Shown here in pieces: positions 6,722 through 45,830 of a stretch of DNA of 64,000 nucleotides (positions within the stretch are counted from its first letter, which is position 1; each line of letters opens with the position of its first letter). This DNA is from Alphaproteobacteria bacterium. GTDB taxonomy: Bacteria; Pseudomonadota; Alphaproteobacteria; SMXQ01. The notes beneath the pieces were generated by a model that worked only from the letters and a program-made list of their open reading frames with translations, had not been told where the DNA came from and did no database searches. Where the stretch lies: NCBI GenBank assembly GCA_038131655.1, contig JAYPPT010000002.1:52517-116516 (forward strand), given 5' to 3'. The position numbers and the translations under genes are program-made.

Positions 6722-7231
6722 ATGAAAAACAATATGATCGAAACCGTTTTGGGCGGGGTTGTGCTGCTGGTGGCGGGCGTGTTCGTCGTTTTTGCCTATA
6801 CCAATGCTTCGCTCAGGACCTCGACCGGTTATGAATTGACAGCCCGTTTTGACCGGGTCGGTGATCTCAAGCAGGGCGACGACGTCAAGCTCGCGGGGAT
6901 CAAGATCGGTTCGGTCACCGGCCAGGCGCTGGACCCCAAGACCTACCAGGCGGTCATCACCCTGACCATCGAGCCCCATGTCAAGCTGCCCACCGATACG
7001 GCGGCGGAAATCGCGTCCACGGGATTGCTCGGCGGCAGCGTCGTCTCGCTTAACCCGGGCGGTGCCGAATCCACCATCAAGCCGGGCGGGCAGATCACCA
7101 TCACCCAGGGTGCCGTCAACCTGGTGGACCTGATCGGCAAGGCGATTTTTTCAGCCAAGGGCGCAGTTGAAGCCAAGCCCGCCGCCGCCGCCGACCCGCT
7201 GATGGCCCCCATGCCGGGAGCCGGCAAATAA
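6722..7231 (+). CDS. mlaD: MlaD-like (Mce-domain) outer-membrane lipid asymmetry protein
   Basis: N-terminal TM segment, then an Mce domain (DVKLAGIKIGSVTGQALDP...). ATG at 6722 preferred over the upstream TTG. Confidence 0.7.
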   Translation: MKNNMIETVLGGVVLLVAGVFVVFAYTNASLRTSTGYELTARFDRVGDLKQGDDVKLAGIKIGSVTGQALDPKTYQAVITLTIEPHVKLPTDTAAEIASTGLLGGSVVSLNPGGAESTIKPGGQITITQGAVNLVDLIGKAIFSAKGAVEAKPAAAADPLMAPMPGAGK

Positions 7232-7246
7232 CATTCTGAACGGGCC

Positions 7247-7702
7247 GTGCTGTCGGTCGTGTCAGGGATGGGGTCACTTAAAGGGAGCCCGTTCGCCGTG
7301 TCGCCGAGGTCATTGTCCACTGTCTTCCTGTGTTGCGCCCTGGTCCTGTCCGGGGGCGCCGCCGCTGCTGATCTTGAAGGCGGCGGGGCGCTCATGCAGG
7401 GACTGGACAAGGTGACGGCCCGCATATCGCCGATCCATGCCCCCGTGGGCCAGGTGGTGCGTTTCGGAACACTGGAGATCATGGTGCGGCGCTGCCTCAA
7501 GCGCCCGCCGGAAGAGCCGCCGGAAAGCGCGGCGCTGGTGGACATCCGCGAGGTTCGGCCGGGGGAAGCACCGGTTGTGCTGTTCCAGGGCTGGATGTTC
7601 GCGTCGTCACCGGCGCTCAACGCGCTGGAGCATCCGGTTTACGACGTTTGGATCAAGGATTGCCTGAACGTCAAATCGGCGGTGGACAGCGCCCCCCGGT
7701 AG
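7247..7702 (+). CDS. DUF2155 domain protein (secreted)
   Basis: Signal peptide plus a conserved domain that commonly accompanies NDUFA12/mlaD in alphaproteobacteria. The 3' end overlaps the convergent aat gene. Confidence 0.6.
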
Positions 7703-12858: not shown

Positions 12859-13989
12859 ATGACAGACAAGATCAAGCGCTTCCTGGCTGAGCAGTGTCCC
12901 GAGACGCCTTGCCTCGTGATCGACGTGGACAAGATCGTCGACAATTACCGTACCCTGAAGCGCCATTTGCCGGCGGCCGACATCTATTACGCGATGAAGG
13001 CGAACCCGGCCGTGGAGGTTCTGCGTCCGCTGGTGCAAGAGGGCGCCAACTTCGATGCCGCGTCGATCTACGAGATCGAGCACGTGATGAAGTGCGGGGC
13101 CAAGGCCGCCAATATTTCTTTCGGCAATACCATCAAGAAGGAAGAGCACATCGCTGCGGCTTACGCGCGCGGGGTGAGAATGTTTGCCTTCGACAGCGCG
13201 GCGGAACTGGAAAAACTTTCCCGTGCCGCGCCCGGCGCGCGCGTCTTTTGCCGTATCCTGATGACCAATCCCGGCGCGCTGTGGCCGACCTCGCGCAAGT
13301 TCGGCTGCGATGTGGAAATGGCCCGCGATCTTCTGATCCAGGCCCGCGATCTTGGTCTCGATCCTTACGGCGTGTCCTTCCATGTCGGTTCCCAGCAGGT
13401 TGACCTGGGCCAGTGGGATATCGCGGTGGCGCGCACGCGCCTTTTGTTCACCGCGCTTGAGGATGCGGGCATTCGTCTCGGCATGGTCAATGTCGGCGGC
13501 GGTATGCCGGTGCGCTATCGTACCGATGTGCCGAGCCCCAAGCAGATTGCCGACGCGATCATGGAGGCCATGCACAAGCATTTCGGCAACCGCCTGCCGC
13601 GCCTGGTTGTCGAACCGGGCCGGGGCATGGCCGGCGATGCGGGTATCATCCTAGCGACGGTGGTGCTGATTTCCACCAAGTCGTATCTGGATGAAAAGCG
13701 TTGGGTCTATCTCGATGTCGGCAAGTTCGGCGGTCTTCCCGAAACCATGGGTGAATGCATCCGCTATCAGATCGAAACCGACCGCGATGGCGGCCCCACG
13801 GGCCCCGTGGTGCTGGCGGGGCCGACCTGCGACGAGGTTGACGTGATCTACGATCAGGCCGGTTACGAATTGCCGCTCGATCTGCAGGTTGGCGACAAGG
13901 TTCGCATTCTCGCCACCGGGGCTTATACTTCGACCTATTCGTCGGTGGCTTTCAACGGCTTCCCGCCGCTGCGCGAAATCTGCATCTGA
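12859..13989 (+). CDS. Type III PLP-dependent ornithine/lysine decarboxylase (eukaryotic-type ODC fold)
   Basis: 376 aa. Contains YAMKAN, GVSFHVGSQ and GPTCDE motifs. Confidence 0.85.
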   Translation: MTDKIKRFLAEQCPETPCLVIDVDKIVDNYRTLKRHLPAADIYYAMKANPAVEVLRPLVQEGANFDAASIYEIEHVMKCGAKAANISFGNTIKKEEHIAAAYARGVRMFAFDSAAELEKLSRAAPGARVFCRILMTNPGALWPTSRKFGCDVEMARDLLIQARDLGLDPYGVSFHVGSQQVDLGQWDIAVARTRLLFTALEDAGIRLGMVNVGGGMPVRYRTDVPSPKQIADAIMEAMHKHFGNRLPRLVVEPGRGMAGDAGIILATVVLISTKSYLDEKRWVYLDVGKFGGLPETMGECIRYQIETDRDGGPTGPVVLAGPTCDEVDVIYDQAGYELPLDLQVGDKVRILATGAYTSTYSSVAFNGFPPLREICI

Positions 13990-14015
13990 CCGGGAAGCCC
14001 GGAGCAACCGCTCGA

Positions 14016-14659
14016 TGGAGCTTTACGACTACTTCCGGTCCTCTGCCAGTTATCGCGTTCGCATCGGTCTCAACCTCAAGGGCCTCTCGCCGGAACGTCA
14101 TTTCGTTCATCTGACGCGCGACGGCGGCGAGCAGTTTTCCGAGGGGTTTTCCAGACTCAACCCGCAGCATCTGGTGCCGGTGCTGGTCGATAACGGCAAT
14201 GCCATCAGCCAGTCCCTGGCTATTCTTGAATATCTCGACGAAACCCATCCCGAACCGCCGTTCCTGCCGGCCGCCGCCGCCGCCCGGGCGCGGGTCCGGG
14301 CCATGGCGCTGGCCATCGCCTGTGACATTCATCCTCTCGATAACTTGCGGGTCCTGTTTTATCTCAGGGATGCCCTGGGTCAGGACGAAGAGGCGCGCAA
14401 CACCTGGTATCGTCACTGGGTGGCGAAAGGGCTTGAGGCGCTGGAAGCCGCGCTCGCGGGCGACAGGGCGACGGGCAGATTCTGTCACGGCGATACGCCG
14501 GGCCTTGCCGATATCTGCCTGGTACCGCAGATCTTCAATGCCAAGCGCTTCGACTGCCCGCTCGGGGGCTACCCCACGGTGATGCGGATTTTCGATGCCT
14601 GCATGGCGCTTCCCGCTTTCGATGCGGCCCAACCCGCCAATCAGCCCGACGCCGAATAA
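14016..14659 (+). CDS. maiA: Maleylacetoacetate isomerase (GST zeta family)
   Basis: MELYDYFRSSASYRVRIGLNLKG...SQSLAILEYLDE is typical of GST zeta. Confidence 0.8.
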
Positions 14660-18857: not shown

Positions 18858-21376
18858 TCAAGTGCCGAAGCGGTTCCACCAGCCCTTGCGCTGGGGCGCT
18901 TTGGGCTTTTCAGAATCTGCTTGCGAAGCCCCGGCGGTTTCGGGCTCGGCGCGAGCCTCGTCAACGGAGACGACCTCGACCTCTGGCTCGGTGGGGGCGG
19001 GGGCGTCGGTGAGTTCTTCGGTAGCGACGACCGTGACGTCTTCTTCTTCTTCTTTTCGGCTTTCGGTTTCTTCTGTCCGGGGCTCATCGGCGACGGCATC
19101 GCTGTCGGTGCCTTCGTCCTGGGCGGGCGCCGCTGTCGCGGCTTCACCCTCGTTGTTGGCGGCTTCGCCTTCGTCCTCGCGCTTGCGGCCACGGCGGCGG
19201 CCGCCGCGACGCCCACGGCGGCGGCGCTTGGGCTTCTCTTCTTCCTCGTCGCCAGCGGCGCTTTCCCCGTCACCGGCGGGGGCGGCGTCTTCGGCTTCGG
19301 TTTCGGACTTGGTTGCGGGGGCGGCTTCGGCGGCGCTGTCCTCGCCTTCGCCTTCGTCGTCACGCTTGCGGCCACGGCGGCGGCGGCGACGACGGCGACG
19401 GGGGCCTTGTTCATCATTGCCCTCGCCTTCGGTGCGGCTTTCGTCCGCGGAACCTTCGGACTCATCGGCGGCTTCGTCGGCCGTTTCGTCCTCATCGGGC
19501 TCATCGATCACGGGGGCCGGGGCCCCTGCCGGCGCCGCGGTCAACGGACGGCCCTCGACGCGCTCGATTTCATGGGCGGGCGGGATCAGCCTGTCGTCAC
19601 CGGTGATAAGCACGCGGAACCCGTAGCGGGCTTCGATCTCGTTCAGCCGGTCGCGTTTCTGGTTAAGGATGTATAGCGCCACATCCACGGAAACCTTGAC
19701 GCGCAATTCCGTCGAGCGGCGGCGAATGCCTTCGTCCTCGATCACGCGCAGCACATGCAGCGCCGCTGATTCGGTGGAGCGGATTAGCCCCGTGCCCTCG
19801 CAGTGCGGGCAGGGTTGGGTAGAGGCTTCCGCCAGGCTCGGACGCAGCCGCTGGCGTGACAGTTCAAGCAGGCCGAAGGCGCTGATGCGGCCGATCTGGA
19901 TGCGTGCGCGGTCATTGCGCATCGCTTCCTTCATGCGGCGTTCGACCGTGTGCTGGTTGCGGTTTTCCGACATGTCGATGAAGTCGATCACGATCAGTCC
20001 GGCGAGATCGCGGAGCTTGAGCTGGCGTGCAATTTCTTCCGCCGCTTCGAGGTTGGTCTTGTAGGCCGTTTCCTCGATGTTGCGTTCGCGCGTGGCGCGG
20101 CCGAGTTGACGTCGATCGACACCAGGGCTTCAGTCGGGTTGATGACGATGTAGCCGCCGGACTTCAACTGCACGGTGGCCGAGTGCATCGCGTCAAGCTG
20201 GGTTTCAACCTGATAGCGATGGAACAGCGGAATTTCAGGGTCCCTGTAGGGCTGAACCTTCTTCGCATGGCTAGGCATCAGCATGCGCATGAATTCCTTG
20301 GCCGTGCGGTAGCCTTCATCGCCCTCGACCAGCACTTCGTCGATGTCCTTGGTGTAAAGGTCGCGGATCGAACGCTTGATCAGGTTGGCTTCTTCGTACA
20401 CCAGTGTCGGCGCAATCGAACTGAGGGTCAGTTCACGCGCCGTGTCCCATGCGCGCATGAGGAATTCAAAGTCGCGTTTCAGTTCGGCCTTCGATCGTTC
20501 CACCGCCGCCGTGCGCAGGATGATGGCCATCCCGTCGGGAATTTCCAGGTCCGAGAGCAGGGACTTGAGCCGCTTGCGGTCGCCCGCGCTGGTGATCTTG
20601 CGCGAAATGCCGCCGCCCTTGGCCGTGTTCGGCATCAGGACGCAGTAGCGTCCTGCCAGCGAGAGGTAGGTGGTCAGTGCCGCGCCCTTGTTGCCGCGTT
20701 CTTCCTTGACGACCTGGATCAGCAGGATCTGGCGCCGCTTGATGACTTCCTGGATCTTGTAGCGCTGGCGCTTGTGGCGCACCCGACGGCGTTCGGCGTG
20801 CTGGTCGGTTTCATCCTCGCCGCCCACTTCCTCGACCGGGTGGGGGGCGGCTTCAATGATCTCACCTTCCGGCGCCGGGGCATCGTCGTGGGCTTCCTGG
20901 GAATCTGCGGTGCTTTCCGCCGTCACGTCGCCATCGGCGGCGTCGGTTTCGCCATCGCCTTTGGGGGCATCGCCGTCGCCATCGCCATCGTCAGCGGCCG
21001 CTTCGGCTTCGGGCTCGGGCGGTGTCTGCTCCGTCACCTCGATGTCGTCGTCGACCTCGGCATCTTCCTCTGCCGCTTCCGCGGCCAGGGCCTCCTCGTG
21101 CTCGCGTATCAGCGCGGCGCGGTCGGCAACCGGGATCTGGTAGTAGTCGGGATGAATTTCGCTGAAGGCGAGAAAGCCGTGGCGGTTGCCGCCGAACTCC
21201 ACGAACGCCGCCTGAAGCGACGGTTCCACCCGCGTCACCTTGGCGAGGTAGATGTTGCCCTTGAGCTGCTTTTTCGTGGAAGTTTCAAAATCAAATTCTT
21301 CAAGACGCTTGCCGTTAAGGGCAACCACCCGCGTTTCTTCGGGATGGGTGGCGTCAATCAACATGCGCTTCGTCAT
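18858..21376 (-). pseudogene. rne: Ribonuclease E, split into two ORFs by an apparent -1 frameshift near nt 20101 (likely sequence artefact)
   Basis: N-terminal ORF 19994..21376 (S1 and catalytic domain: MTKRMLIDATHPEETRVVAL...). C-terminal ORF 18858..19991 (…LAGLIVIDFIDM…, Arg-rich and acidic tail). Back-translation shows one missing G at the junction. Confidence 0.85.
19165..19410. repeat. Internal direct repeat within rne encoding two Arg-rich (RRRRRGRKR-DEGE) RNA-binding segments
   Basis: Near-identical DNA tcgtc(c/g)tc(g/a)cgcttgcggccacggcggcgg occurs at ~19170 and ~19356. Confidence 0.4.
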
Positions 21377-23231: not shown

Positions 23232-25649
23232 ATGCGTTTTCTGACCATCACCTTTGGCGGTCTCCTGATTGCGGCGATTTTTGCGGCGGTGGGGGTGCTT
23301 GGCCTGTTTTTCTATTTCGGCAGGGGACTGCCGGACTACAACCAGCTCGCGGTTTACGAGCCGCCGGTGATGACCCGCGTGCACGCGGGCGACGGCAGCC
23401 TGATTACCGAATACGCGACCCAGAAGCGCGTTTTCGTGCCTATCGGCGCGATGCCCAAGCTGGTGATCAAGGCTTTCCTCGCGGCCGAAGACAAGAATTT
23501 CTATTCCCATCCCGGCGTTGATTTTCTGGGTGTGGCGCGCGCCGCGGTTACCAATCTTCTGCAATTCGCCACGGGCCGCCGTCCGGTGGGGGCCAGCACG
23601 ATCACGCAGCAGGTGGCGAAAAATTTCCTGCTGACCAACGAGGTTTCGATCGAACGCAAGATCAAGGAAGCGATCCTGGCGTTCCGTATCGAGCGCGCCT
23701 TCACCAAGGACCGTATTCTCGAGCTTTACATGAACGAGATTTATCTCGGTTTCGGTTCTTACGGCGTTGCGGCGGCGGCGCTCAACTATTTCAACAAGCC
23801 GCTCGATGAACTGAGCATCGCCGAGGCAGCGTATCTGGCGGCACTGCCCAAGGCGCCGAGCAACTATCATCCAATCCGCAATCACGGCGCGGCCAAGGGG
23901 CGGCGCAACTGGGTGGTGGAGCGGATGCTCGAGGAAGGGTTTATTTCCGCGTCCCAGGCGGCGGCGGCGAAAGCCGTGCCGCTGGTCGTGCGTGAGCGCG
24001 AGGCGACGCTGCTGACCCGCGCCGAGTATTTCGCCGAGGAAGTGCGCCGCGAACTGTTCGAGCGATATGGCGAGAGCCAGCTTTATCGCGGTGGGCTTTC
24101 GGTGCGTACGACGCTGGAGCCGCGCCTTCAGGCCCTTGCCGACCGCGTGTTGCGCGACGGCCTTGTCGCCTATGATCGCCGTCACGGCTGGCGCGGGCCG
24201 CTGGCCCGCCTGGAAGGCGAGGCGGGGACCCCGGCGCCGGGCACGGACTGGGCACGCAAGCTGGCCGCCCGGCAAATCAAGATACCCGATAACTGGCGCC
24301 GCGCCGTGGTGCTGCTGTCCGGACCGGCGGAGGCCGTCATCGGATTTACCGATGCGAGCCGTGGCCGCATTCCGCTGGCCGATCTTGCCTGGGCCCGGAC
24401 TGCCCTGAAAAAGGGCCGGCGCGGCCCCGCGGTGAAATCGGCGGCCCAGGTGCTGATGCCGGGGGATGTCATCGCCGTGGAGCCGGTCGCGGGTGATGTC
24501 TACAGCCTGCGCCAGGTGCCGGAAATAGAAGGCGGCATCGTCGCGCTCGATCCCCACACCGGGCGGGTGCTGGCGATGTCGGGCGGCTTCGCCTTTGCCG
24601 AATCACAGTTCAACCGCGCCACCCAGGCCGAACGCCAGCCCGGTTCGGCCTTCAAGCCTTTCGTTTACCTGGCGGCGCTGGATTCGGGGTTCACGCCCGC
24701 GTCGCGCATTCTCGATGCCCCCTTCGTCATCGATCAGGGGGCGGGCCTTGGCTTGTGGAAACCGCAGAACTATGCAGCGCGGTTCTACGGACCTTCGACC
24801 ATGCGCCTTGGAATCGAGAAATCGCGCAATCTGATGACCGTGCGTCTGGCGCAAACCATCGGCATGGAAAAGGTCGTGGCCTACGCCAGGAAATTCGGCA
24901 TCAACGACAAGATGAAGCCGAACCTGGCGATGGCCCTGGGGGCGGGGGAAACCACCTTGCTGCGCCTGACCGCCGCTTACGGCATGCTGGTCAACGGCGG
25001 CAAGCGTATTGAGCCGACGTTCATCGACCGCATCCAGGATCGCCACGGGCGGACCATCTTCCGTCATGACGAGCGCGATTGCCCGGCGTGCAAGACTCCG
25101 GGCCTCACGCCCACGGAATTGCCGGGAATGCCGGAAATTCCCGATAATCGCGATCAGGTCGCCGATCCCGGTTCCGCCTTTCAGGTGGTCTCCATGCTGC
25201 AAGGCGTGGTCCAGCGCGGCACCGGGCGGCGTATCGCCGCCGTGGGCAAACCGCTCGCGGGCAAGACCGGGACGACCAATGACAGTTTCGATACCTGGTT
25301 CGTCGGTTTTTCGCCCGACCTTGCGGTGGGTGTGTTCATGGGCTTCGACAAGCCCCGGACGCTCGGCCGCGGGGAAACCGGCTCGTCGGTTGCGGCGCCG
25401 GTGTTCAAGGCTTTCATGGAAACTGCACTCAAGGATCAGCCCGCGATTCCCTTCCGTATTCCGCCGGGCATCCGCATGGTGCGGGCCAACCCGGTGACCG
25501 GGCTGCCCGCGCGTCCCGGCGAACGGCGCACCATTCTCGAAGCCTTCAAGCCCGGCACCGAGCCCACCGGCGACGAAGGCGTGATCGACGGTTCGGGACC
25601 CCTGTCCATGGATGGAAAAGGGGCGCCGGGAACGCGTGGTCTGTATTGA
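23232..25649 (+). CDS. mrcA: Class A penicillin-binding protein 1A (glycosyltransferase + transpeptidase)
   Basis: 805 aa. GT51 motifs (EDKNFYSHPG, RKIKE) and transpeptidase motifs SAFKP and KTGTTND. Confidence 0.9.
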   Translation: MRFLTITFGGLLIAAIFAAVGVLGLFFYFGRGLPDYNQLAVYEPPVMTRVHAGDGSLITEYATQKRVFVPIGAMPKLVIKAFLAAEDKNFYSHPGVDFLGVARAAVTNLLQFATGRRPVGASTITQQVAKNFLLTNEVSIERKIKEAILAFRIERAFTKDRILELYMNEIYLGFGSYGVAAAALNYFNKPLDELSIAEAAYLAALPKAPSNYHPIRNHGAAKGRRNWVVERMLEEGFISASQAAAAKAVPLVVREREATLLTRAEYFAEEVRRELFERYGESQLYRGGLSVRTTLEPRLQALADRVLRDGLVAYDRRHGWRGPLARLEGEAGTPAPGTDWARKLAARQIKIPDNWRRAVVLLSGPAEAVIGFTDASRGRIPLADLAWARTALKKGRRGPAVKSAAQVLMPGDVIAVEPVAGDVYSLRQVPEIEGGIVALDPHTGRVLAMSGGFAFAESQFNRATQAERQPGSAFKPFVYLAALDSGFTPASRILDAPFVIDQGAGLGLWKPQNYAARFYGPSTMRLGIEKSRNLMTVRLAQTIGMEKVVAYARKFGINDKMKPNLAMALGAGETTLLRLTAAYGMLVNGGKRIEPTFIDRIQDRHGRTIFRHDERDCPACKTPGLTPTELPGMPEIPDNRDQVADPGSAFQVVSMLQGVVQRGTGRRIAAVGKPLAGKTGTTNDSFDTWFVGFSPDLAVGVFMGFDKPRTLGRGETGSSVAAPVFKAFMETALKDQPAIPFRIPPGIRMVRANPVTGLPARPGERRTILEAFKPGTEPTGDEGVIDGSGPLSMDGKGAPGTRGLY

Positions 25650-25730
25650 TCCGCAATCCGGTGCTTGTCGGCGCCGCCGTCTTCGTGATTTGATGCGCGC
25701 CCAAATTCCCCGCTTCGGAAGAGAGTTACA

Positions 25731-26857
25731 ATGCGTGCCGAAATAGCAACCGTCGCCGATGAAATCAGGCAGTCCCTCGCGCTGCTGAAGGTATCTTTGA
25801 CTACGATAACGCGGTCAAGGAACTCGAGATCCCTGAACTTCAAGGCGGAAGATCCCCCTTTGGTCCGACCAGGCTGAAGCCCAGCGCGTCATGCGCGCGC
25901 GCACGCAACGGCTGGAGCAGGGCTCGGCCGTTTTGATGAGCTGGAGCGCGGGTTCAACGACAGTCTCGAACTGCTTGAGATGGCGGAAGCCGAAAAATGA
26001 TGCCACCGTCACGGCGGACGCGGAAAAAAACCCTGTTTGATATTCGCGACCGCGCCGGAAAAGCTGGAAATCGAAAGCCTGCTGTCGGCGAGGCCGATCC
26101 AACAATTGTTTCCTCGAAGTTCATGCCGGTGCGGGCGGCACGGAATCAGGACTGGGCGGAAATGCTGTTGCGTATGTACACGCGCTGGGCCGAAGCGCAC
26201 GACTACAAGGTGTCCTGGGTGGAAGAAAGCCCCGGCGAGGAGGCCGGGATCAAATCCGCGACGGTAAAGGTCACCGGCGATAATGCCTACGGCTGGCTCA
26301 AGTCCGAAAGCGGCGTGCATCGCCTGGTGCGCATTTCGCCTTACGATTCGGCGGCGCGGCGCCATACCAGCTTCGCCAGTGTCTGGGTTTACCCGGAAGT
26401 GGACGATTCGATCGAGATCGAGATCAACGACAAGGATTTGCGCATAGATACCTACCGGGCGTCGGGCGCCGGTGGTCAGCACGTCAACAAGACCGATTCG
26501 GCGATCCGCATCACCCATTTGCCGACGAATATCGTCGTGCAGTGCCAGACCGACCGTTCCCAGCACCGCAACCGCGCGGCGGCTTTCGCCATGTTGCGCG
26601 CAAGACTGTACGAGCGTGAGTTGCAGATGCGCGAAGAAGCGGCCGAGGCAACCCGAGGGGCAAAATCCGATATCGGCTGGGGCAGTCAGATTCGGTCCAC
26701 CGTGTTGCAGCCCTACCAGATGGTCAAGGACCTGCGCACCGGGGTGGAAAAAGGCAATGCCCAGGGCGTGCTTGACGGCGATCTCGATGATTTCATGGCG
26801 GCGTCGCTGGCGCAGCGCGTCAGCGGCGAGACCAAGACGGTCGAGGATATCGACTAG
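25731..26857 (+). pseudogene. prfB: Peptide chain release factor 2, with at least 7 frame disruptions in the first ~400 nt; C-terminal 240 codons intact
   Basis: MRAEIATVADEIRQSLALLK at 25731. RF2 segments DYDNAVKELE / LNFKAEDP / LWSDQAEAQRVMRARTQRLEQGSAV / [21 protein letters not shown] / [11 protein letters not shown] / [10 protein letters not shown] / [16 protein letters not shown] appear in alternating frames. The frame is then continuous from [11 protein letters not shown] to the end ([21 protein letters not shown]). Confidence 0.8.
25792..25801 (+). promoter_or_regulatory. Canonical RF2 programmed +1 frameshift site (TAT CTT TGA C)
   Basis: tatctttgac is followed by DYDNAV in the +1 frame, as in autoregulated prfB. 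The upstream SD-like AGGGGG is not intact. Confidence 0.6.
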
Positions 26858-27669
26858 CCATTTTTGCCCGGCGCACGCAGGTCGCGATACCAGTCCGGCG
26901 TCAGCCCAGCCTGGGCGCGGGCGGTTTCGTTGAACGGGGCTTTCAGCGCGCCCCTGAACCGCTGGCCGGCCAGTTGGCGCCAGGCTGCGCGCGGTGTCAT
27001 GCCGCGCTCGCGGGCGACGCGTTCGAACCATTTGTGGCCGATGGCGACATGGCCGATTTCATCACGATACACAACGCCGAGCAGGTCCGCCGTTGCGTCA
27101 TCGCCGAAGCGGCGCATACGTGCGATCATCGTCGGCGTGACGTCGAGCCCGCGCGCTTCCAGCACCAGTGGCACGATGGCAAGCCGTGCCAGGATGTCGT
27201 CGGTGGTGGCGGCGGCTGCTTCCCACAGGCCGTCATGGGCGGACAGGTCGCCGTATGCCGCGCCGCATTCCAGCAGGCGGGCGTGGATCATCTCGAAGTG
27301 CCGCGCTTCTTCTGCCGCGACGCGGAGCCAGTCGGTAATGAATTCCGGCGCGATACGGTCATGGGCGAACCGGGCGACGATGTCGGCGGCAAGATCGATG
27401 GCATTCAGTTCGATATGGGCGAGCGCGTGCAGCAGCGCGATGCGTGTCTGGGCCGATTTGCCGGCGCGGCGCTTGGGCATGTCGCGGGGTGCGCGTAGCT
27501 CCGGCCGTGCCGGGCGGGATGGCCGCTCCGGGGCGCCGGGCTCGCCGATGTCGATGATCGCGCCCGAGATCCAGTCCTCTGCCAGCACCCGTGCGGTGCT
27601 GGCCTTGGCCAGCGGGTCGGCGGTCTCCAGGACGGCACGCGCCCGCCGGATCAGGGTCGGCGCGCTCAT
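26854..27669 (-). CDS. Ferritin-like DUF455 family protein
   Basis: 271 aa. The conserved pattern [10 protein letters not shown]...EEARHF is typical of DUF455. Confidence 0.7.
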
Positions 27670-34951: not shown

Positions 34952-36185
34952 CTAGGTTCTGGAGACCAGGCGGGCGATTTTCTTTTTGCCCACCGTCAGC
35001 CGCTGTTCGCCCGCCTGGGGCATGACAGTCAGGTTCATGTCCGTGATCTTTTCACCGTCGATGGACACCGCGCCTTGCTGCACCAAGCGGCGGGCTTCGC
35101 TGTTCGATTTGGCGAAACCGGCGGACGTGATCGCGGCGATGACTGACAGTCCCGCAGCATCGCTGATTTCTATGGTCGGCAGATCGCCGCCCAGCGTGCC
35201 TTCCTCGAAGGTCTTGCGCGCCGTTTCATTGGCGGCTTCGGCGGCGGCCCGGCCGTGGACCATGGCGGTCGCGTGATCGGCGAGGATTTTCTTGGCCTCG
35301 TTGATCTCCGCCCCTTGCAGTTGTTCCAGCCGGGCGATCTCGTCCAGGGGCAGTTCGGTGAACAGGCGCAGGAAGCGGCCCACGTCGGCATCTTCCGTGT
35401 TGCGCCAGAACTGCCAGTAGGCGTAGGCGGGCAACCGGGCTTCCGACAACCACACCGCGCCGCGCGCGGTCTTGCCCATTTTTTCGCCCGAGGCCGTGGT
35501 GATCAGCGGGCTGGTGAGGCCGAACACCTCGCGCTCGGCGGCGCGGCGCGTCAGTTCGACGCCGTTGACGATATTGCCCCACTGGTCCGATCCGCCCATT
35601 TGCAGCACGCAATCGTGCCGCCGCGCCAGTTCCAGGAAGTCATAGGCTTGCAGGATCATGTAGTTGAATTCGAGAAAGCTGAGGGGCTGTTCGCGTTCAA
35701 GGCGCAGCTTGACCGATCTGAATCCGAGCATCCGGTTGACGGAAAAATGCCGCCCGTAATCGCGCAGGAATGAAATGTAGTTCAGCCGGTCGAGCCATTC
35801 GGCGTTGTCCAGTATGACCGCATCGTTGGTGCCGTCGCCGAAGCTGACAAAGCGGTCGAAGATACGCTGGATGCCGGCTTTGTTTTCTCCGATGACCGCT
35901 TCGGACAGAAGCTGGCGGCTTTCGTCCTTGCCCGACGGATCGCCCACTGGTGGTGCCGCCGCCCATCAGGACGATGGGCTTGTGGCCGGATTTCTGCAAA
36001 TGACGCAGCAGCATGATCGGCACCAGGGAGCCGACGTGAAGGCTGGATGCCGTGCAGTCGAAGCCGATGTAAGCCGTGGTGACGCCCTTCATCAGGCGCG
36101 CATCGAGCGCGTCCATGTCCGTGCACTGGTGCACGAATCCGCGTTCGATCAGGGTATTGAGGAATTCGCTCTTGACCGTAGCCAT
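34952..36185 (-). pseudogene. tyrS: Tyrosine--tRNA ligase, interrupted by an apparent 2-nt deletion near 35950 (likely artefact)
   Basis: N-terminal ORF ends …[11 protein letters not shown] then goes out of frame. The next ORF begins [14 protein letters not shown] (class I KMSKS: [10 protein letters not shown]). Expected accaccaaggtgggc is observed as accaccagtgggc. Confidence 0.85.
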
Positions 36186-36307
36186 GGCCTGAAGTCTGTT
36201 GCACAAGGGTGAATGCTTGGTTGCGGCGTCATGTAGCATGATCGGAGAGGCGGCACAAATTGAACGGTGAAGGGCCCTATAATATTGATCGCGGCCCGGC
36301 GGCTGGC

Positions 36308-37411
36308 GTGCCGGTCTGGGCCGTGGGCCTGATGAGCGGAACCTCCTCGACGGTGTCGACGTGGCCCTGGTTCGCACCGACGGCGAGACCCTGACCGAGG
36401 TGGGACCGGCCCTGATGCTGGCCTATGACGATGTCTTTCGCAAACGTCTGCATGCGCTGATCCGGGGCCGGGCCGACGACGCCGAGCGCGCCGATATCGA
36501 GCGCGATCTGACCGCGCGCCACTGGAAGGCGGTGGGCGCCCTGGTGCGGCGCTGGTACGACGGTGATCCCCGCGATGTCCGGGTGATCGGTTTCACGGCC
36601 AGACCCTGTGGCACCGCCCGGAAAGCCACGAGACCTGCCAGATCGGGGACGGCGCCCTGCTGGCCCAATTGTCGGCGGCGCCGGTCATCAATGATTTTCG
36701 CAGCGCCGACATGGCGGCGGGCGGCGAAGGCCCCCGTTGGCGCCGCTTTACCACCTGGCCCGCGTCGCGGCCTGCGGTATCGCGGCGCCGGTGGCGGTCC
36801 TGAACATCGGCGGCGTCGCCAACGTCACCTGGATCGGACCCGATGACTTGGCCCTGGAAGATCGTCTGCTGGCCTTCGACACCGGTCCCGGCGGCGCGCT
36901 GATCGACGATTGGGCGCTGATGCATACGGGCCGAGCCTGCGACGTGGACGGACGGCTGGCGGTGGCGGGACGGTGGACGCGGCGGCGGTGGCGCAAATGA
37001 TGGCGCATCCCTTTTGATCGGGCGCCGCCCAAGTCCCTCGACCGGCTGGCGTTCGAGACTCCGCTCGGCGGGCTTGGGGTCGAGAACGGGACGGCCACCC
37101 TGACCGCCTTTACCGTGCGTTCCATCGCGCGCGCGGCGGATTTCTTCCCGCAGCCGGTGACGCGCTGGCTGGTCACCGGCGGTGGTCGCCATAACCCGGT
37201 GCTGATGGCGGGGCTGGCGGCGGCGCTGGGCGTGCCGGTGGAGCCGGTGGAAGATGTGGGCTGGAACGGCGATGCGATCGAGGCGGAGGCGTTTGCCTAT
37301 CTCGCGGTGCGGTCGCTTCGGGGCTTGCCGCTGAGCCTCCCCAAAACGACTGGCGCCCGCCGTGCGATGACGGGCGGGCGCCTGTACATGCCGGAAGGGT
37401 CCGTCGCCTAG
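36308..37411 (+). pseudogene. anmK: Anhydro-N-acetylmuramic acid kinase, at least 4 frame disruptions
   Basis: AnmK segments [11 protein letters not shown] / [28 protein letters not shown] / APLYHLARVAACGIAAPVAVLNIGGVANVTWIGP / SIARAADFFPQPVTRWLVTGGGRHNPVLMAGL occur in three different frames. The first lesion is tccctcgac observed as tcctcgac. Confidence 0.7.
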
Positions 37412-38073
37412 CTAGCTTCGCGCACCGCGTCGAGGGCCTTGCGCGCCTCATCGACATAGGTGCCGACGGCCTGGCTCATTTCCTCGAGCTTGTCCTGGAA
37501 GAAGTGGTTGGCACCGGGAATATTGGTGTGCTGCACCACGATGTCGCGCTGGGCCGACAGCTTGGTCGCCAGCGCCTTGACCGAATCGGCGGGCACCAGG
37601 TCATCGGCGTCGCCGTGGACGATCAGTCCCGACGCCGGGCAGGGCGCGAGGAAGGTGAAGTCGTAGAGGTTGGCCGGCGGGGCGACGGAAATGAAGCCCT
37701 CGATCTCGGGGCGGCGCATCAGCAGTTGCATGCCGATCCAGGCGCCGAAGGAAAAGCCCGCGATCCAGCAGCCGGCGGCATCCGGGTTCTGGGTCTGGAT
37801 CCAGTCCAGCGCCGCGGCCGCGTCGGCCAGTTCGCCCTGGCCCTGGTCGAAACGTCCCTGGGAGCGTCCGACACCGCGAAAATTGAAGCGTAGCGCCGAA
37901 AAGCCTCGCTGAACGAAGGTATTGTACAGGTTGTACACGACCTTGTTGTTCATCGTGCCGCCGCCCTGGGGATGGGGATGCAGCAGCAGCACCATCGGTG
38001 CATTTTCGGTTTTACTCTGAAAGTAACGGCCTTCAAGACGCCCATCGGGCCCATTAAAGATGATTTCCGGCAT
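37408..38073 (-). CDS. Alpha/beta-fold hydrolase (dienelactone-hydrolase-like)
   Basis: 221 aa with the GFSFGAW nucleophile elbow. Confidence 0.7.
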   Translation of the reverse strand: MPEIIFNGPDGRLEGRYFQSKTENAPMVLLLHPHPQGGGTMNNKVVYNLYNTFVQRGFSALRFNFRGVGRSQGRFDQGQGELADAAAALDWIQTQNPDAAGCWIAGFSFGAWIGMQLLMRRPEIEGFISVAPPANLYDFTFLAPCPASGLIVHGDADDLVPADSVKALATKLSAQRDIVVQHTNIPGANHFFQDKLEEMSQAVGTYVDEARKALDAVREAS

Positions 38074-38255
38074 TCCTCACCTTGAATTCCCGCGGAATCC
38101 CGCGATTTAAACGCTCGCCCATGGAAAAATTGCGGGTATAAAGGCCAGCCAGCCTTCCGGATTTTCCCAATACCTGATATAATTTGTGGGTTTTATCAAG
38201 TCCGTTACCGCGCGTTGCGGAGGGCAGGGCGGCGCAACATAGCACAAAGGGCACC

Positions 38256-38978
38256 ATGTTTTTCAAGAGCCTGATAGAAGACATTGATGCTGTCCTCGTC
38301 CGGGACCCGGCTGCAAAAAGCCGATTCGATGTCATTTTCAGCTACCCCGGCTTCCATGCCCTGATGTTTTACCGCCTGTCCCACCGCCTGTGGGGTTGGG
38401 GGGCGCGCTTTTTCGCCCGCTGGGTTTCGCACCTGGCGCGGTGGCTGACGGGGATCGAGATTCACCCCGGTGCCCAAATCGGCCAGCGCTTTTTCATCGA
38501 CCACGGCATGGGAGTCGTGATCGGTGAGACAGCAGAGATAGGCAACGACGTGACCATTTACCAGGGGGTGACCCTTGGCGGCACTTCCTTGCACGACGGC
38601 AAGCGCCACCCCACCTTGGGCAACGGTGTCGTTGTCGGTTCTGGGGCCCAGGTCCTGGGACCGCTGACCGTGGGTAAGGGCGCGCGGATCGGCGCCAACG
38701 CGGTGGTGCTGCGCGATGTGCCGGAAGGCGTCACCATGGTTGGCATTCCCGCCCGCCCGGTGCAGCCCAAGCCCAAGGTCGTCGATACCGACAAGGCGGT
38801 GCCGCTGGAATTTTGCGCCTATGGAACCCAGAACGGCGACATGCCCGATCCGGTTGCCCGCGCCCTTGATCAGCTATGCGAGCATGTCACGAACAGCCAG
38901 AAGCGGATTGAGGAACTGGAGCGGCGGCTGGCGGAACGTGACCCGGAAGAAAACGCGCCGCGCTTGGCCAAAAACTAA
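38256..38978 (+). CDS. cysE: Serine O-acetyltransferase
   Basis: [13 protein letters not shown]..., hexapeptide repeats, [15 protein letters not shown]. Confidence 0.85.
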
Positions 38979-39042
38979 GACCTGACAGTCCGGCAGCTTG
39001 CGGCATGGGTCGCACCCGGGCGCATCCGAGCGGAGACGGATC

Positions 39043-39498
39043 ATGAAACTGACAACCAAGGGCCGCTACGCGGTGATGGCGATGGCGGATCTGGCCCGCA
39101 ATGGCGGCGAAAAGCCGTTGTCGCTGGCCGATATTGCCGAGCGCCAGGAAATTTCCCTGTCCTACCTGGAACAGCTTTTCGCCAAGCTGCGTAAGGGCGG
39201 GCTGGTGCGTTCGGTGCGCGGGCCGGGCGGCGGCTACCTGTTGTCGCGCCCTGCCAGCGCAGTGCGGGTTTCCGACATCATTTTTGCCGTGGATGAGCCC
39301 ATCCGCGCCACGCGCTGCACTCCCGGTTCGCCGATCAGTTGCCAGGGCGCCAAGGGCCGATGCCTGACCCATGACCTCTGGGAGGAACTGTCCAATCACA
39401 TTCACCTATTCCTGAGTGCGGTAACACTCGACGATGTGAGCAGTCAGAAGGTGCTGGGCATGTCCGGCGTCGTGTATCGCAACAGCGCCGTCCAATAG
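39043..39498 (+). CDS. Rrf2-family transcriptional regulator (IscR-like)
   Basis: [18 protein letters not shown]... wHTH and Cys residues ([16 protein letters not shown]). Confidence 0.8.
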
Positions 39499-39544: not shown

Positions 39545-40687
39545 GTGAGTTGCCGTCATTACATGGATTACAACGCGACCGCGCCGCACCGCGCCGAAGT
39601 GCGTGCCGCAATTAGCGATGCGCTGGCAATGACCGGCAATCCGTCGTCAGTTCATGCCGAGGGCCGTGCCGCCCGCGCCGCCGTTGAGACGGCCCGGCGC
39701 GATGTTGCGGCGCTGGTCGGGGCCCAACCGACGCAAGTGGTGTTCACCGGTTCGGGATCGGAGGCGAACAATCTTGCTCTTTCCGGCCTCCGACCGGCGC
39801 GGGTCATGGTGTCGGCGGTAGAGCACGCCTCGGTCCTGCGTCCGGCGGCGGAACGCTCGGGCGCCTTCGTGCTGCTGGCGGTGGACGGTGATGGGGTGGT
39901 GAACCTGGGTGGCCTGGAACGCGCCCTCGACGAATCTTCCGCTACCGGGCCGACGCTGGTTTCGGTAATGCTCGCCAATAACGAGACCGGCGTCATCCAG
40001 CCGACGGCCGATGTGGTGCGTCTGGCCAGGGATGCAGGCGCCTTGGTGCATATCGATGCGGTGCAGGGTGTGGGCCGTATCGCCATTGATTTTGCCGCGC
40101 TCGGTTGCGATTTGATGAGCCTGTCGGCGCACAAGCTCGGTGGTCCCAAGGGCGTAGGTGCGCTAGTGGTGCGCAACGGACTAGCGCTGGCGCCGCTGGT
40201 GGCCGGTGGCGGGCAGGAGCGCAGCCTGCGCGCGGGCACGGAAAATGTCGCCGGTATTGTCGGTTTTGCCGCTGCGGCGCGCGTGGCGCGGGCCGAGGTC
40301 GCGGCGGGAACGGAGCTTGCCCGCCAGCGGGCGATGCGTGACCGTATCGAGGCGGCGGTCCTGGCCAGCCGCAATGACGCGATCATTCTGGGCACGGCCG
40401 CCGAACGGCTGGTCAATACCAGTTGCATTGCGTTGCCTGGCGCGCGGTCCGATGTTCAGGTCATGGCCTTCGACCTGGCCGGGATCGCGCTCAGTGCGGG
40501 TTCGGCCTGCTCGTCGGGTAAGGTGGAACCGTCCCACGTTCTCGAAGCGATGGGACTGGCGCCGGAAATCGCGGGCAGTGTCGTGCGCGTCAGTGTCGGC
40601 TACGGCACAACCGATGCCGATGCCGATGCCTTCATAGATGCGTGGCAGAGGATTTGCGGTGCTGGGGGCACGCGCCGCACAGCGTAG
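39545..40687 (+). CDS. Cysteine desulfurase (NifS/IscS family)
   Basis: 380 aa with motifs [19 protein letters not shown] and the active-site loop SAGSACSSG. Confidence 0.85.
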
Positions 40688-40734
40688 TTTTTTTCAATTG
40701 TGTGTTCCAAGAGCAAGAAAGGTGGTTCGGCGCG

Positions 40735-41064
40735 ATGCCCAAAATGACATTCATCAATAAGGATGGTTCCAAGAAGGAAGTGGAAGCGCCGATCGGCCAG
40801 TCGGTGCTGGAAATTGCCCATGCCAACGGCATAGACATCGAAGGCGCGTGCGAGGGATCGCTGGCCTGTTCCACCTGCCATGTCATCGTCGCGCCGGAGG
40901 ATTACGAGCGCCTGTCGGAAGCGACCGAGGACGAAGAAGACATGCTCGATCTCGCCTTCGGGTTGACGGCGACCTCGCGGCTCGGCTGCCAGATCATCAT
41001 GAGCGAGGAGCTCGAGGGCCTGACCGTGAACCTGCCCCAGGAAACCCACAACATGCAGGGCTAG
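40735..41064 (+). CDS. 2Fe-2S ferredoxin (adrenodoxin/Fdx type)
   Basis: Motifs [11 protein letters not shown]...C are typical of adrenodoxin-type ferredoxins. Confidence 0.8.
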
Positions 41065-41070
41065 CCGGGA

Positions 41071-42237
41071 ATGAGCGTCGTGCTGGACCAAGCCGATGTG
41101 CTGCCCGTTCTTGCTCCCCTGGTGGCGGGCAAGGCGCCTGCGGACACGCGTGTGGTCGTCGCTATGTCGGGCGGCGTCGATTCGTCGGCGACGGCGGCGT
41201 GGCTGCACGCGCTCGGCTACGATGTGATCGGCATCACGCTTCAGCTTTACGATCATGGTCAGGCGGTGGGGCGCAAGGGTGCTTGCTGCGCCGGGCAGGA
41301 TATCCACGATGCCCGTGACGTTGCCGCTGGGCTTGGTATTCCGCATTACGTGCTCGACTACGAAAGCCGTTTCCGCGATCAGGTGATGGACGATTTCGCT
41401 GATGCCTACCTGCGCGGGGAAACACCGATCCCCTGCGTGCGCTGTAACCAGACGGTGAAGTTCCGCGACCTGCTGGCGACGGCCCGCGAACTGGGCGCGG
41501 ATGTCTTGGCCACCGGCCATTATGCGCGCCGCGAGGAAGGTGCCGCCGGCCCCGAACTGCGCCGCGCCGCCGATGACGGGCGCGACCAGAGCTATTTCCT
41601 GTTCACCACCACCCGCGACCAGCTCGATCTGCTGCGCTTCCCCCTGGGCGGGCTGCCGGACAAGGCCGCGACCCGGGCGCTGGCCCAGCGCTTCGGCCTG
41701 CGCGTCGCCGACAAGCCCGACAGCCAGGACATCTGCTTCGTGCCCGATGGCGATTACGCGCGGGTGATCGAAAAGCTGCGCCCCGGCGCGGCGGAGCCGG
41801 GCGATATCGTGGATATGGAGGGCAATGTCCTGGGCCGCCACAAGGGCATCATTCATTACACCATCGGCCAGCGCCGGGGGCTCGGCATCGGCGGGCGCAC
41901 GGGCGGGGAGGACGATGCGCTTTATGTCATCCGCCTCGATGCCGATAGGCGCCGCGTCATCGTCGGCCCGCGTGCGGCGCTCGGCGTCGGCGCGATCACC
42001 CTGCGCGAGGTGAACTGGCTCGGCGATGCGCCCCTCGGCGCCCGGCCGGTGCCGGTCATGGTCAAGGTGCGCTCGACCCATCGCCCGGTGGCGGTGACCC
42101 TCGCGGCCACCGAAGATGGCGGCGCCCGGCTGGTGTTCGATCAGCCCGAGCCCGGCGTTTCGCCGGGCCAGGCGGCGGTTTTCTACGATGGTGACCGGGT
42201 ACTTGGCGGCGGCTGGATCGCGGCCACGGGCGGTTAA
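41071..42237 (+). CDS. mnmA: tRNA-specific 2-thiouridylase
   Basis: [13 protein letters not shown]-loop; C-terminus [13 protein letters not shown]. Confidence 0.9.
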
Positions 42238-42587: not shown

Positions 42588-43010
42588 CTAGAGCGCGACC
42601 TGCTGCTGGCGGTCCTTCGTGAAGTAATCGCGATTATTCAATTGGCCCTTGCCGGCGATGACGATCTCGTCGCCCGGCTTCTTCACCTGGTAAAGCAGGG
42701 CGGGCGCTTCGCTTTCATTGTGCAGCTGATAATACTGCCCACCGGGAATCAGCACGCACATACCTTCTTCAAGGTGATGAACCTCCGGCTCCGCATCCTC
42801 GCTTTTCTTGGTTCGAACTGTCAGCTTACCTTTCAGGCATAAGAACGATTGTGACGTTCCCTTGTGGTAATGGAACTCGTTACGTCCGCCCGGTGAGTAA
42901 AGGTTAAGTGCGATCAGAAGATCCTCCTCCTTCGACAGCAGCTTGCGCTGGCGCGGGCGGTCTGGGTTCTGCATATCGATCGAATCGAAAATCCTGGTAA
43001 CCTGAGCCAT
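42588..43010 (-). CDS. Small cupin-domain protein
   Basis: Start MAQVTRIFDSIDM at 43010. Cupin motif ...NEFHYHKG...QSF. GC is lower than surrounding genes. Confidence 0.55.
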   Translation of the reverse strand: MAQVTRIFDSIDMQNPDRPRQRKLLSKEEDLLIALNLYSPGGRNEFHYHKGTSQSFLCLKGKLTVRTKKSEDAEPEVHHLEEGMCVLIPGGQYYQLHNESEAPALLYQVKKPGDEIVIAGKGQLNNRDYFTKDRQQQVAL

Positions 43011-43137
43011 GTCTGTTCCTCCATCGTTGGCGGCCTTTGCGGACTGTTGGTTGGAAGTGTAGCCGAATATACTCCCCTGAAAGGGCAAAAAGAAGGGGAG
43101 GGCTAGGCCCTCCCCATGATTGGTGCCATGGCTTGGG

Positions 43138-44391
43138 TTATTTGCAGTTGACTTCCTTTGCCTCGGCGCCGACGCGCAAGTAGACAAAAGTACAGGTCAT
43201 GCCTGGCTTGATATTCTTACGCTTGTTTTTTTTGCCGCCAATGGTGACCTTGGTGCGCGAACCGGAAACCTTGGCTGATACTTCCTTGCCCTCGTGCATC
43301 AGTGAGATCTTGCGACCACCTCTTTCGGTCTTGGTGACCTTGCCGGTGTGGTTGAGTATAGTGACTTTGGTCGTGACTTTGTTGGCATCGATGATCAGCT
43401 GCTTGACCTTAGGAGAAACATTCAGGGCCTCCTGGAATGCCTTGTCGACTTCCTCGCCGTAGCCCGCTTCGATGTCCCGGCCCTGGGCCTTGGCAGCCTT
43501 GCGTGCTTCCGGGTTTCCCAGTGCATACTTGTAGGCGGCACGGAGCGCCTCAAGACGGTCCGCCTTGATGCCCGGAGGTGCACCGGTCACCCGCCAGAAT
43601 TCACCGGCGAGGGTGGTCAGCTTGGCCAGTTGCAGGCCGTCTGGATCCTTTATCAGTTCATAGGCCGTGGGCACGTTCGGCAGGTCCGGATCCCGCTTGG
43701 TTGAATAGGTGGTGAGAATGCGGCCGCGGCCCTGCTTGTGGAAGTCGATATTGCTTTCGATCGACCCCATCATTACGTCGATTTCGCCGCGCATCATGGC
43801 AAGATGCGCGTCCGGTCCATCATAGCCCGGAATCATGCGGAACTTCAGGTTCATCGCGGCTTCCGACATCTTGGCGAAGACCCAGCGTCCCGAGCCCGGT
43901 CCACCGGTTGCCATTTTCAACGCCTTGCCCGCCGCGCGCATCTCGTCGATGCTTTTGTAAGGCAGCTTGCCGTTAACCATGATCAGCTGTGGCGAGCTCG
44001 AGGCCTTACCAAGGAAGTTCATTTTAGCGAGATCGTACTTGACGCCCTTCTTTTTCAGGATCTGGTTGAAGAACATCGCCGTGTTGAACGTGCCCATGGT
44101 TAGGCCGTCGGGCTTCGAATTGTAAATGAAGTTAGTGCCGATGATGTGGCCGGCGCCAGGCATATTGCGGACCACGAAGGTTGAGCCCTTCAGGTATTGG
44201 GACATGTACTTGGCAACCAGTCGGCCATAGAAGTCGAAACCGCCGCCGGCGCCGGTCGCGACGATATAGGTCGCGGTCTTTCCCTTGAAATAGGCGACGT
44301 CTTCCTTGGCTTTGGCGCTGTTCACTCCACCGAATCCGACCGCCGCGGCGAGTGTCACCGCGATGGCGATGGATGTCTTGCTGGGGTACAT
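43138..44391 (-). CDS. TctC/Bug-family periplasmic solute-binding protein with a conserved Cys-pair C-terminal extension (paralog A1)
   Basis: AGGAGG SD then MYPSKTSIAIAV signal peptide. Bug-type motifs ATGAGGGFDFYGR and FVVRNMPGAGHIIG. C-terminus ...SGSRTKVTIGGKKNKRKNIKPGMTCTFVYLRVGAEAKEVNCK. Confidence 0.7.
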   Translation of the reverse strand: MYPSKTSIAIAVTLAAAVGFGGVNSAKAKEDVAYFKGKTATYIVATGAGGGFDFYGRLVAKYMSQYLKGSTFVVRNMPGAGHIIGTNFIYNSKPDGLTMGTFNTAMFFNQILKKKGVKYDLAKMNFLGKASSSPQLIMVNGKLPYKSIDEMRAAGKALKMATGGPGSGRWVFAKMSEAAMNLKFRMIPGYDGPDAHLAMMRGEIDVMMGSIESNIDFHKQGRGRILTTYSTKRDPDLPNVPTAYELIKDPDGLQLAKLTTLAGEFWRVTGAPPGIKADRLEALRAAYKYALGNPEARKAAKAQGRDIEAGYGEEVDKAFQEALNVSPKVKQLIIDANKVTTKVTILNHTGKVTKTERGGRKISLMHEGKEVSAKVSGSRTKVTIGGKKNKRKNIKPGMTCTFVYLRVGAEAKEVNCK

Positions 44392-44588
44392 ACTGATGCC
44401 TCCTTTGACAGATGATTTGGGGATAGCGCCGGACCGGTCTTTGGACCGATTGTGGGCAGCAATTGACAGCCCGCGTCCTACTCGCCAAATTCTTTCGACG
44501 GTAACACGGGAGCAAACGGTGAGGCAAACCGTCCGTATCCCGCGGGAATTCTGTGAACAACCCGGCAAAAATAAAACAGGGGAAAAAA

Positions 44589-45830
44589 ATGAAAAAACGC
44601 CTTCAGGTAGAACGACGCACGCAGCGGTGGCAGGAACAGCGCTGGATTCTCGATGCGGTGATCGCCACCGTAGGTCCCGAATGGGACCAGGGCCGCATGT
44701 CCAAGGGCGCGCGAGCCGGATCAGAAGGTGCGGCGGCTTTCCGCACTGCATCATCGCGGATGAAGAGATTCAACGATATCGGTCCCGAATTTACCCGTCA
44801 GGGCCGGAAGGCGGAAGCTCGCGCAAAACAGTACGAGAAAGAAAAGCGCATGGTATCAGCGCGCGAGCAATATTTTATCGCCTCGCTTCTTTATGCATCG
44901 GCCCAGTGGCCTTATTTCGATTTCGACGACACCGTGGCAGAACTGGAAGAACGGATGAATGCGACGTTCGCCAAGTACTGTAAATACGCACCGCAGCCGA
45001 CACGCCGCGTCGAGATACCATTTGGTAAGGGCAAGACCCTTCCTGCGTATCTGCATTTGCCACGCAAGCCGGTAAGGGGTGAGCGCTTTCCGGTGACCCT
45101 GGTGACCGGCGGCATGGACGGCTCCAAGGAAAGCATGGTGTCAATGTACGGCGATCCGGCGTTGCAGCGCGGCTTCGCGGTATTGGCGCTGGACGGGCCG
45201 GGGCAGGGCGAATGCCCTGGCCGGGGTATCTACCTGACCCCGACCAACTTCGGCGATGCTGGTGCAGCTTGTGTTGATTGGCTGTGCGACCAGCCGGAGA
45301 TAGATCCGGACGGCGTCGTTATCCGCGGCTCCTCCTTCGGCACCTACTTCGGGACCCAGGCTGCAGCGGGGCTCGGCAACCGTATCAAGGGTGTCTGTGC
45401 CACTGGCATTTGCCAGGAACCGGGTGCGCATACCATCTTCAACATGGCGTCGCCCACCTTCAAGGTGCGCTTCATGTTCATGTGCGGCTTCGAGGACGAA
45501 GCCAAGTTCGACAAGTTCGTCCAAGGCTTCGACCTACGCAAGGTCGCAGCCAAGGTCAAATGTCCGTACATGATCGTGGCCGGTGAGGACGATCAGCTTT
45601 CCCCGGTGGAGCACACCTACAAGCTATTCGAGAAGATCAAGGCGCCGCGTCGCCTGGTGGTTTACGAAAGTGCGAACCATTCAATCAAGGGGGGACCAGC
45701 GGCTGCCAATGGCGAGAACCGGGAAACCATGATGATGGATTGGATGCTCGACCGGGTGACGGGCAAATCGATGAAATCCGAGCTCTGGTATATCGATTCT
45801 GCCGGGAAGGCCAACATTACCAGGTATTAG
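44589..45830 (+). CDS. Alpha/beta-hydrolase (DHPON-hydrolase/FrsA-like family)
   Basis: ~414 aa with the GSSFGTY nucleophile elbow. Family members include C-C bond hydrolases. Confidence 0.65.
   Translation: MKKRLQVERRTQRWQEQRWILDAVIATVGPEWDQGRMSKGARAGSEGAAAFRTASSRMKRFNDIGPEFTRQGRKAEARAKQYEKEKRMVSAREQYFIASLLYASAQWPYFDFDDTVAELEERMNATFAKYCKYAPQPTRRVEIPFGKGKTLPAYLHLPRKPVRGERFPVTLVTGGMDGSKESMVSMYGDPALQRGFAVLALDGPGQGECPGRGIYLTPTNFGDAGAACVDWLCDQPEIDPDGVVIRGSSFGTYFGTQAAAGLGNRIKGVCATGICQEPGAHTIFNMASPTFKVRFMFMCGFEDEAKFDKFVQGFDLRKVAAKVKCPYMIVAGEDDQLSPVEHTYKLFEKIKAPRRLVVYESANHSIKGGPAAANGENRETMMMDWMLDRVTGKSMKSELWYIDSAGKANITRY

Follow-up and report, generated by a model that had tools for sequence, protein, structure and literature searches.

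The prfB locus and its relatives

The window (the whole 64-kb stretch of DNA that was analysed; 63% GC) carries at positions 25731-26857 of the plus strand the gene prfB for RF2 (peptide chain release factor 2), from which, in the sequence as given, full-length RF2 cannot be translated. The gene lies between a PBP1A gene (23232-25649), which ends in TGA 80 nt upstream of prfB, and a DUF455 gene (26854-27669); the same-species orthologue is found at the same position. The prfB ATG (25731-25733, plus strand), where ORF0 starts in frame 0, is matched in the alignment by an ATG in every prfB gene of the same species and of relatives, and the frame that it opens in the window starts MRAEIATVADEIRQSLALL. 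The largest ORF of the locus, 25997-26857, consists of RF2 sequence only from QDWAEM (26147) onward. Against TIGR00020 (curated cut-off of 370 bits) this ORF scores 404.9 bits, over profile positions 131-352 only, and the intact RF2 of the same species scores 525.4 bits over positions 2-352/353. Homologues of the window RF2 carry PF03462 and PF00472, the PCRF and RF-1 domains.

The stretch from QDWAEM to the stop codon TAG (26147-26857, plus strand) is the undamaged two-thirds of RF2, with zero indels relative to any relative; the best protein match of this intact C-terminal part in the protein search (P0001) is 96% identical. The catalytic motif GGQ is present (26471-26479, plus strand), and the tripeptide anticodon is SPY (26336-26344, plus strand), the textbook form being SPF. 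Related alphaproteobacterial RF2 have SPY in 30 of 69 cases and SPF in 37, so that SPY is, as judged from these sequences, a variant typical of the lineage. A dinucleotide change private to the window, TAC to ACC at 26699-26700 (plus strand), converts QIRSYV to QIRSTV; all four same-species assemblies have TA there, and the Tyr is invariant in 69 of 69 related RF2. This change is probably a compensated -T/+C indel pair, and thus a further error outside the main patch described below.

Same-species assemblies were found via an exact-sequence look-up of the 154-aa peroxiredoxin encoded in the window. The set, which comes from at least four independent samples, consists of GCA_038105755.1 contig JAYOCV010000006.1 (L088/L098), JGI 3300063996 (L089), JGI 3300063997 (L090) and GCA_038131285.1 (L091), and also includes several short Logan contigs. 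Nucleotide identity to window positions 7684-38599 is 99.3-99.5%. Compared with one another, these assemblies show 25-41 substitutions and zero frameshifting indels over 13-16 kb; their sole indel is an in-frame 6-nt difference in the (TCT)n repeat of the C-terminal part of rne. That repeat (19039-19055) varies in frame by 3-9 nt among the same-species assemblies, which looks like natural length polymorphism and not error. Separately, positions 38000-38500 show 23 mismatches per 500 nt relative to L088 (1-7 elsewhere), with no indels; local divergence or recombination of this segment may be the reason.

More distant relatives (73-86% DNA identity; 73.5% for L097) have an intact prfB too. Their contigs are syntenic with the window, sharing the genes for RNase E, an AmiC-like amidase, PBP1A, prfB, DUF455, a RidA-like protein, peroxiredoxin, GlnE and YhdP; the syntenic relatives from the protein search are 76-86% identical in DNA. 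In a collection of species-representative genomes, the best RF2 among the matches listed has 82% protein identity, and no same-species genome was among them. Exact-protein look-ups gave no match for the window's PBP1A, DUF455 and cupin (42588-43187) proteins or for the ORF at 38998-39498; in the large assembly collection the PBP1A and DUF455 proteins are missing even though it contains proteins from strains that are 99% identical, so that the source record of the window is apparently not part of it.

The recoding cassette and the eleven lesions

TAT CTT TGA C is read at 25792-25801 and is continued in the +1 frame by GAC TAC GAT AAC GCG GTC AAG GAA CTC GAG (DYDNAVKELE), both just where a sequence-only reading of this DNA had placed them. 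The recoding heptamer itself, CTT TGA C (25795-25801, plus strand), combines the slippery CTTT, the RF2-specific stop and a 3' C, and is invariant in the alignment of relatives. That reading had described the recoding motif as intact, which is right for the heptamer, but the cassette as a whole is not functionally intact. In place of the AGGAGG that relatives and conspecifics keep at the canonical spacing, the window has AAGG (25788-25791, plus strand), a remnant of the internal SD-like stimulator left by lesion 1, a 2-nt deletion at 25789 (GAGGAGG to GAAGG); the SD region reads CTGCTGAGGAGGTATCTTTGAC in all same-species assemblies and relatives. The same deletion takes CTT TGA out of the frame set by the ATG at 25731: frame 0 as given reads GTA TCT TTG ACT and continues to a TGA at 25875-25877. 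A metagenome collection scanned for the SD region, with a pattern accepting both the intact and the deleted allele, gave two matches, both with the intact GGAGG allele and both from more distant relatives; the lesion allele was not found in this collection, which is weak negative evidence.

In the same species, prfB is 1129 nt long, and a single +1 shift at CTG CTG AGG AGG TAT CTT TGA C leads to its 375-aa RF2. There, ORF0 comprises 22 codons ending in CTT TGA C, AGGAGG stands 3 nt upstream of CTT, and 353 codons follow; the uninterrupted +1 ORF for the rest of RF2 is present in all same-species assemblies. RF2 acts in termination at UGA and UAA, and the early in-frame UGA of prfB, with CUU before and C after it, is a poor terminator (PMC12421855). 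Pairing of 16S rRNA with an internal SD-like sequence, located 3 nt upstream of CUU, favours a +1 slip of the peptidyl-tRNA-Leu, from CUU to UUU. With abundant RF2 termination prevails, and with scarce RF2 frameshifting gives the full-length protein (PMC12421855). The frameshift site CTTTGA is absent, and RF2 is encoded in one frame, in 11 of the 80 related alphaproteobacterial prfB loci fetched (about one in seven; for example L003, L007, L011, L014, L060 and L068), which agrees with the prevalence of ~50% reported for Alphaproteobacteria (PMC12421855).

We placed the lesions by DNA alignment to the same-species assemblies, which all agree with one another in this part. The window differs from them by exactly 11 indels in 360 nt (25789-26148), six deletions and five insertions. 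One lies upstream of the recoding site (25789), and the downstream +1 ORF is interrupted, between 25828 and 26148, by nine frame-changing indels and one 3-nt insertion. All lesions are given on the plus strand. Lesion 2 is a 1-nt insertion of G outside a homopolymer at 25828 (CTCGA-ATC to CTCGAGATC), and lesion 3 is a 2-nt deletion (CCCGCCC to CCCCC, 25854-25858, the indel at 25857). Lesion 4, an in-frame 3-nt insertion of AAC at 25907-25909, adds a Gln found in no relative, and lesion 5 is the loss of 1 nt from GGGG (to GGG, 25920-25922, the indel at 25923). Three 1-nt insertions follow, each extending a run of A: AAAA to AAAAA at 25993-25997 (lesion 6), by which an in-frame TGA arises in the RF2 frame, A6 to A7 at 26024-26030 (lesion 7) and AAA to AAAA at 26059-26062 (lesion 8). 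The last three are deletions: 1 nt (CC to C) at 26086, with the indel at 26087 (lesion 9); 1 nt (CCC to CC) at 26099-26100, with the indel at 26101 and a window-private substitution adjacent at 26103 (lesion 10); and, as the last break, 2 nt (CCC to C in GAATCCCAGGAC) at 26147, with the indel at 26148 (lesion 11). The net length change of the 11 lesions is -2 nt, and therefore translation from the ATG does not reach the C-terminal part of RF2, the programmed shift notwithstanding.

The sequence-only reading had seen RF2 peptides hop between frames at least six more times before QDWAEM. The hops are real, but the number was an undercount, since 11 indels are found by alignment, and QDWAEM starts at 26147. 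They are seen in the three-frame translation and in a frameshift-aware alignment to 10 related alphaproteobacterial RF2, which required ~10 frame corrections in 25788-26146 besides the programmed +1, and zero after that. It had also been suggested that prfB be aligned with that of related genomes; this is the alignment that gave the count of 11, and none of the 11 occurs in conspecifics. All are absent from L088/L098, L089 and L090, and L091 lacks the six that fall in its covered part.

The idea that every break is a shortened homopolymer proved wrong for about half of them. Five of the 11 are insertions (the three A-run extensions, the non-homopolymer G and the in-frame AAC), and two of the 2-nt deletions are in runs that are not pure. 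Two of the examples offered for it have to be read otherwise: tcgggcgag to tcggcgag had been taken as GGG to GG, but the same-species sequence TGTCCGGCGAG shows CC to C (lesion 9), and ccaaacaat to ccaacaat had been taken as AAA to AA, but the same-species GATCCCAAT shows CCC to CC (lesion 10). In all, seven or eight of the 11 indels lie in or beside runs of at least 3 nt, and four events (the inserted G, the inserted AAC and two of the 2-nt deletions) are other than simple homopolymer miscalls.

These details bear on whether prfB might be expressed despite the breaks, through extra programmed frameshifts, transcriptional slippage or an N-terminally truncated RF2 made from an internal start. 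The three expanded A-runs (A5, A7 and A4) are of a kind that can in principle support slippage, but ten frame corrections of mixed sign would be required, most of them at sites without a slippery sequence, and no relative conserves any of these sites; the same-species genomes are without them. At the sole real recoding site, the SD-like stimulator is damaged too. Past the last lesion, the first in-frame Met is found within QDWAEM (near 26162), and an RF2 started there would be short of ~140 N-terminal residues. We consider expression of this kind extremely unlikely.

Distribution of the lesions over the window

Over the 30,916 aligned nt of 7684-38599, the same-species comparison yields 18 non-triplet indels: the 11 in prfB, one at 20101-20103 and six at 35948-37012. 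The presence of 11 of the 18 within 360 nt has a binomial P of ~1.6e-17, and prfB is indeed, as the sequence-only reading had it, the densest lesion cluster in the window. Inside the gene, all 11 fall in the first 420 of 1129 nt (the first 37%; P ~2e-5), with not one indel in the other 711 nt. Homopolymer runs of at least 3 nt are affected in about 7 of 20 cases inside the patch, against 0 of 30 in the other ~700 nt of prfB, where A5, A4, G4 and C4 runs are among those spared. Sequence context alone thus does not govern the damage; its position matters as well. Substitutions in the same 360 nt number 1-3 relative to the same-species assemblies, which equals the local background of ~0.5%.

Three further genes, rne, tyrS and anmK, are broken in the same manner as prfB, all within 17 kb. 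In rne, comparison with three independent assemblies of the same species shows 1 nt to be missing at 20101-20103 (CCC to CC); L099 is without the lesion too. RNase E is split into ORFs 19994-21376 and 18858-19991 (minus strand), on which profile positions 1-298 and 335-415 (NCBIfam/Pfam) are found separately; in conspecifics it is one protein of 838-840 aa. The other patch, compared with one same-species contig only (L088), holds six deletions, at 35948 (-2), 36345, 36594, 36729, 36967 and 37012 (-2), and breaks tyrS and anmK. The tyrS gene is split into ORFs 34952-35947 and 35697-36377 (minus strand), covering profile positions 4-78 and 82-404, and anmK is in several fragments (36289-37408, plus strand). 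Both rne and tyrS are essential genes.

A codon-usage segmentation of the window, for which its five longest ORFs served as training set, reproduced the ORF boundaries almost everywhere. Same-strand frame switches without a gene boundary appeared at 20103 (rne), 25612-26083 (prfB) and 35947-37408 (tyrS and anmK). Candidates at 6365-7672, 12859-14659, 40641-42229, 42588-44754, 49118-50852, 53965-58162 and 60896-63992 were rejected as frameshifts, being separate complete genes by Pfam. Apart from three patches that lie between 20.1 and 37.0 kb, of 1 nt, 360 nt and ~1.07 kb, the window thus looks clean; the other ~29 kb compared are without non-triplet indels. The patches at 20101-20103 and 35948-37012 are of the same character as that in prfB.

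This distribution, taken together with the use of stop codons, bears on whether prfB is a genuine, very recent pseudogene, with a second RF2 gene elsewhere that handles termination at UGA and UAA. TGA ends 16 of the 48 scored coding segments of the window (about one-third), which means that RF2 is needed. The sequence as given is unable to encode it, and a paralogue could lie in the genome beyond the visible 64 kb; within the 64-kb window no second class-I release factor gene was found, and strains of the same species have retained one intact prfB, at this very locus. The lesions themselves do not resemble decay of a gene: 11 indels to at most three substitutions is the opposite of what neutral decay leaves, and the 711 nt after the damaged first 37% show neither indels nor an excess of substitutions. 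Furthermore, rne and tyrS would also have to be pseudogenes. A pseudogene backed by a second RF2 gene is thus very improbable. There is an equally slight chance that the indels are real and mark a strain with a freshly inactivated prfB plus broken rne and tyrS. If this were true, the essential genes would be duplicated elsewhere, or the lineage would be undergoing catastrophic localised indel mutagenesis, for instance through error-prone repair patches.

Origin of the lesions and comparison with known systems

The 11 indels appear to be a localised, indel-only error patch of this assembly, and neither a pseudogene nor a new recoding system; we put the probability of this reading at about 0.9. 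The sequence-only reading had likewise seen a problem of sequence quality and not biology, and its view is borne out by the intact genes of conspecifics, by indels that come without an excess of substitutions, by the additional breaks in rne and tyrS, and by the regular use of TGA. In the living organism, prfB is almost certainly intact and autoregulated in the classical way, by +1 frameshifting: at times of RF2 shortage, the ribosome would slip on CUU-U and go on through the other 353 codons.

The consensus of the patch would then resemble the indel noise of raw reads, with contraction of G/C-runs, expansion of A-runs, a few events of 2-3 nt and correct base identities. Contracted G/C-runs, expanded A-runs and a few 2-3-nt events are a known signature of indel-prone chemistries. 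Over the patch, reads of such a chemistry may have been very few or poor in quality, or polishing that corrected the neighbouring sequence may have missed it. Conjectural candidate causes of the patchiness are a gap in coverage, an island of a hybrid assembly that escaped polishing, or a bridge made by a single read. Two points go against reading the lesions as errors: it is unusual for an error process to be confined to three short patches when the 64 kb are otherwise clean, and the four events named above are not simple homopolymer miscalls.

Alternatively, the indels could be physically present in the DNA that was sequenced and yet belong to no viable lineage, owing to a damaged or amplified template, a consensus from a single cell or from very low coverage, or slippage during amplification, or they could stem from corruption of the record after assembly. 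The patchy, indel-only and homopolymer-biased pattern would also suit polymerase slippage or the consensus of one molecule. By sequence alone, such origins look the same as an assembly error, and their upshot is the same as well, in that the breaks would not be those of the organism's functional gene; we regard them as unlikely.

An assembly error patch has consequences for how the record is used. The prfB, rne, tyrS and anmK genes would be annotated as pseudogenes or fragments, by which the estimated completeness would fall and a loss of RF2 could wrongly be read into the record; the finding serves mainly as a quality flag. More generally, an otherwise clean assembly can hold short patches with an indel rate of ~3%. 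Such patches are recognisable without reads by same-species comparison, because the indels appear without substitutions.

Genuine loss of RF2 goes along with reassignment of UGA, as in Mycoplasma and Hodgkinia. The window resembles these cases in that its prfB is non-functional as written. In contrast to them, about one-third of its scored coding segments end in TGA, the prfB of close relatives is intact, and in GC content, gene content and synteny it matches a normal free-living alphaproteobacterium. We tried reassignment of UGA as an explanation and ruled it out, since TGA ends about one-third of the scored coding segments, the PBP1A gene upstream included.

The closest parallel to the lesions is provided by long-read or flow-based indel artefacts; indel errors in long-read assemblies are known to give rise to spurious frameshifts and pseudogenes (PMC12007338, PMC8011154). 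The window shares with these artefacts indel-only, homopolymer-biased lesions, the fragmentation of essential genes and the lack of the lesions in conspecific assemblies. It differs from them in that its errors are confined to three short patches and not spread over the sequence.

The gene itself belongs with the bacterial prfB +1 frameshift of the E. coli paradigm (PMC12421855), to which it is similar in its TIGR00020 match, its PCRF and RF-1 domains and its GGQ motif, as well as in the CTT TGA C that stands ~22 codons past the start. The conspecifics add the AGGAGG 3 nt upstream of CTT and the 375-aa product made via a single +1 shift. As written, the window departs from the paradigm by an SD-like element reduced to AAGG, an ORF0 whose register does not match the TGA, nine more frame-changing indels and one 3-nt insertion in the +1 frame, and the tripeptide SPY, not SPF. 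Nothing here is novel biology, and the canonical autoregulatory frameshift of prfB is textbook.
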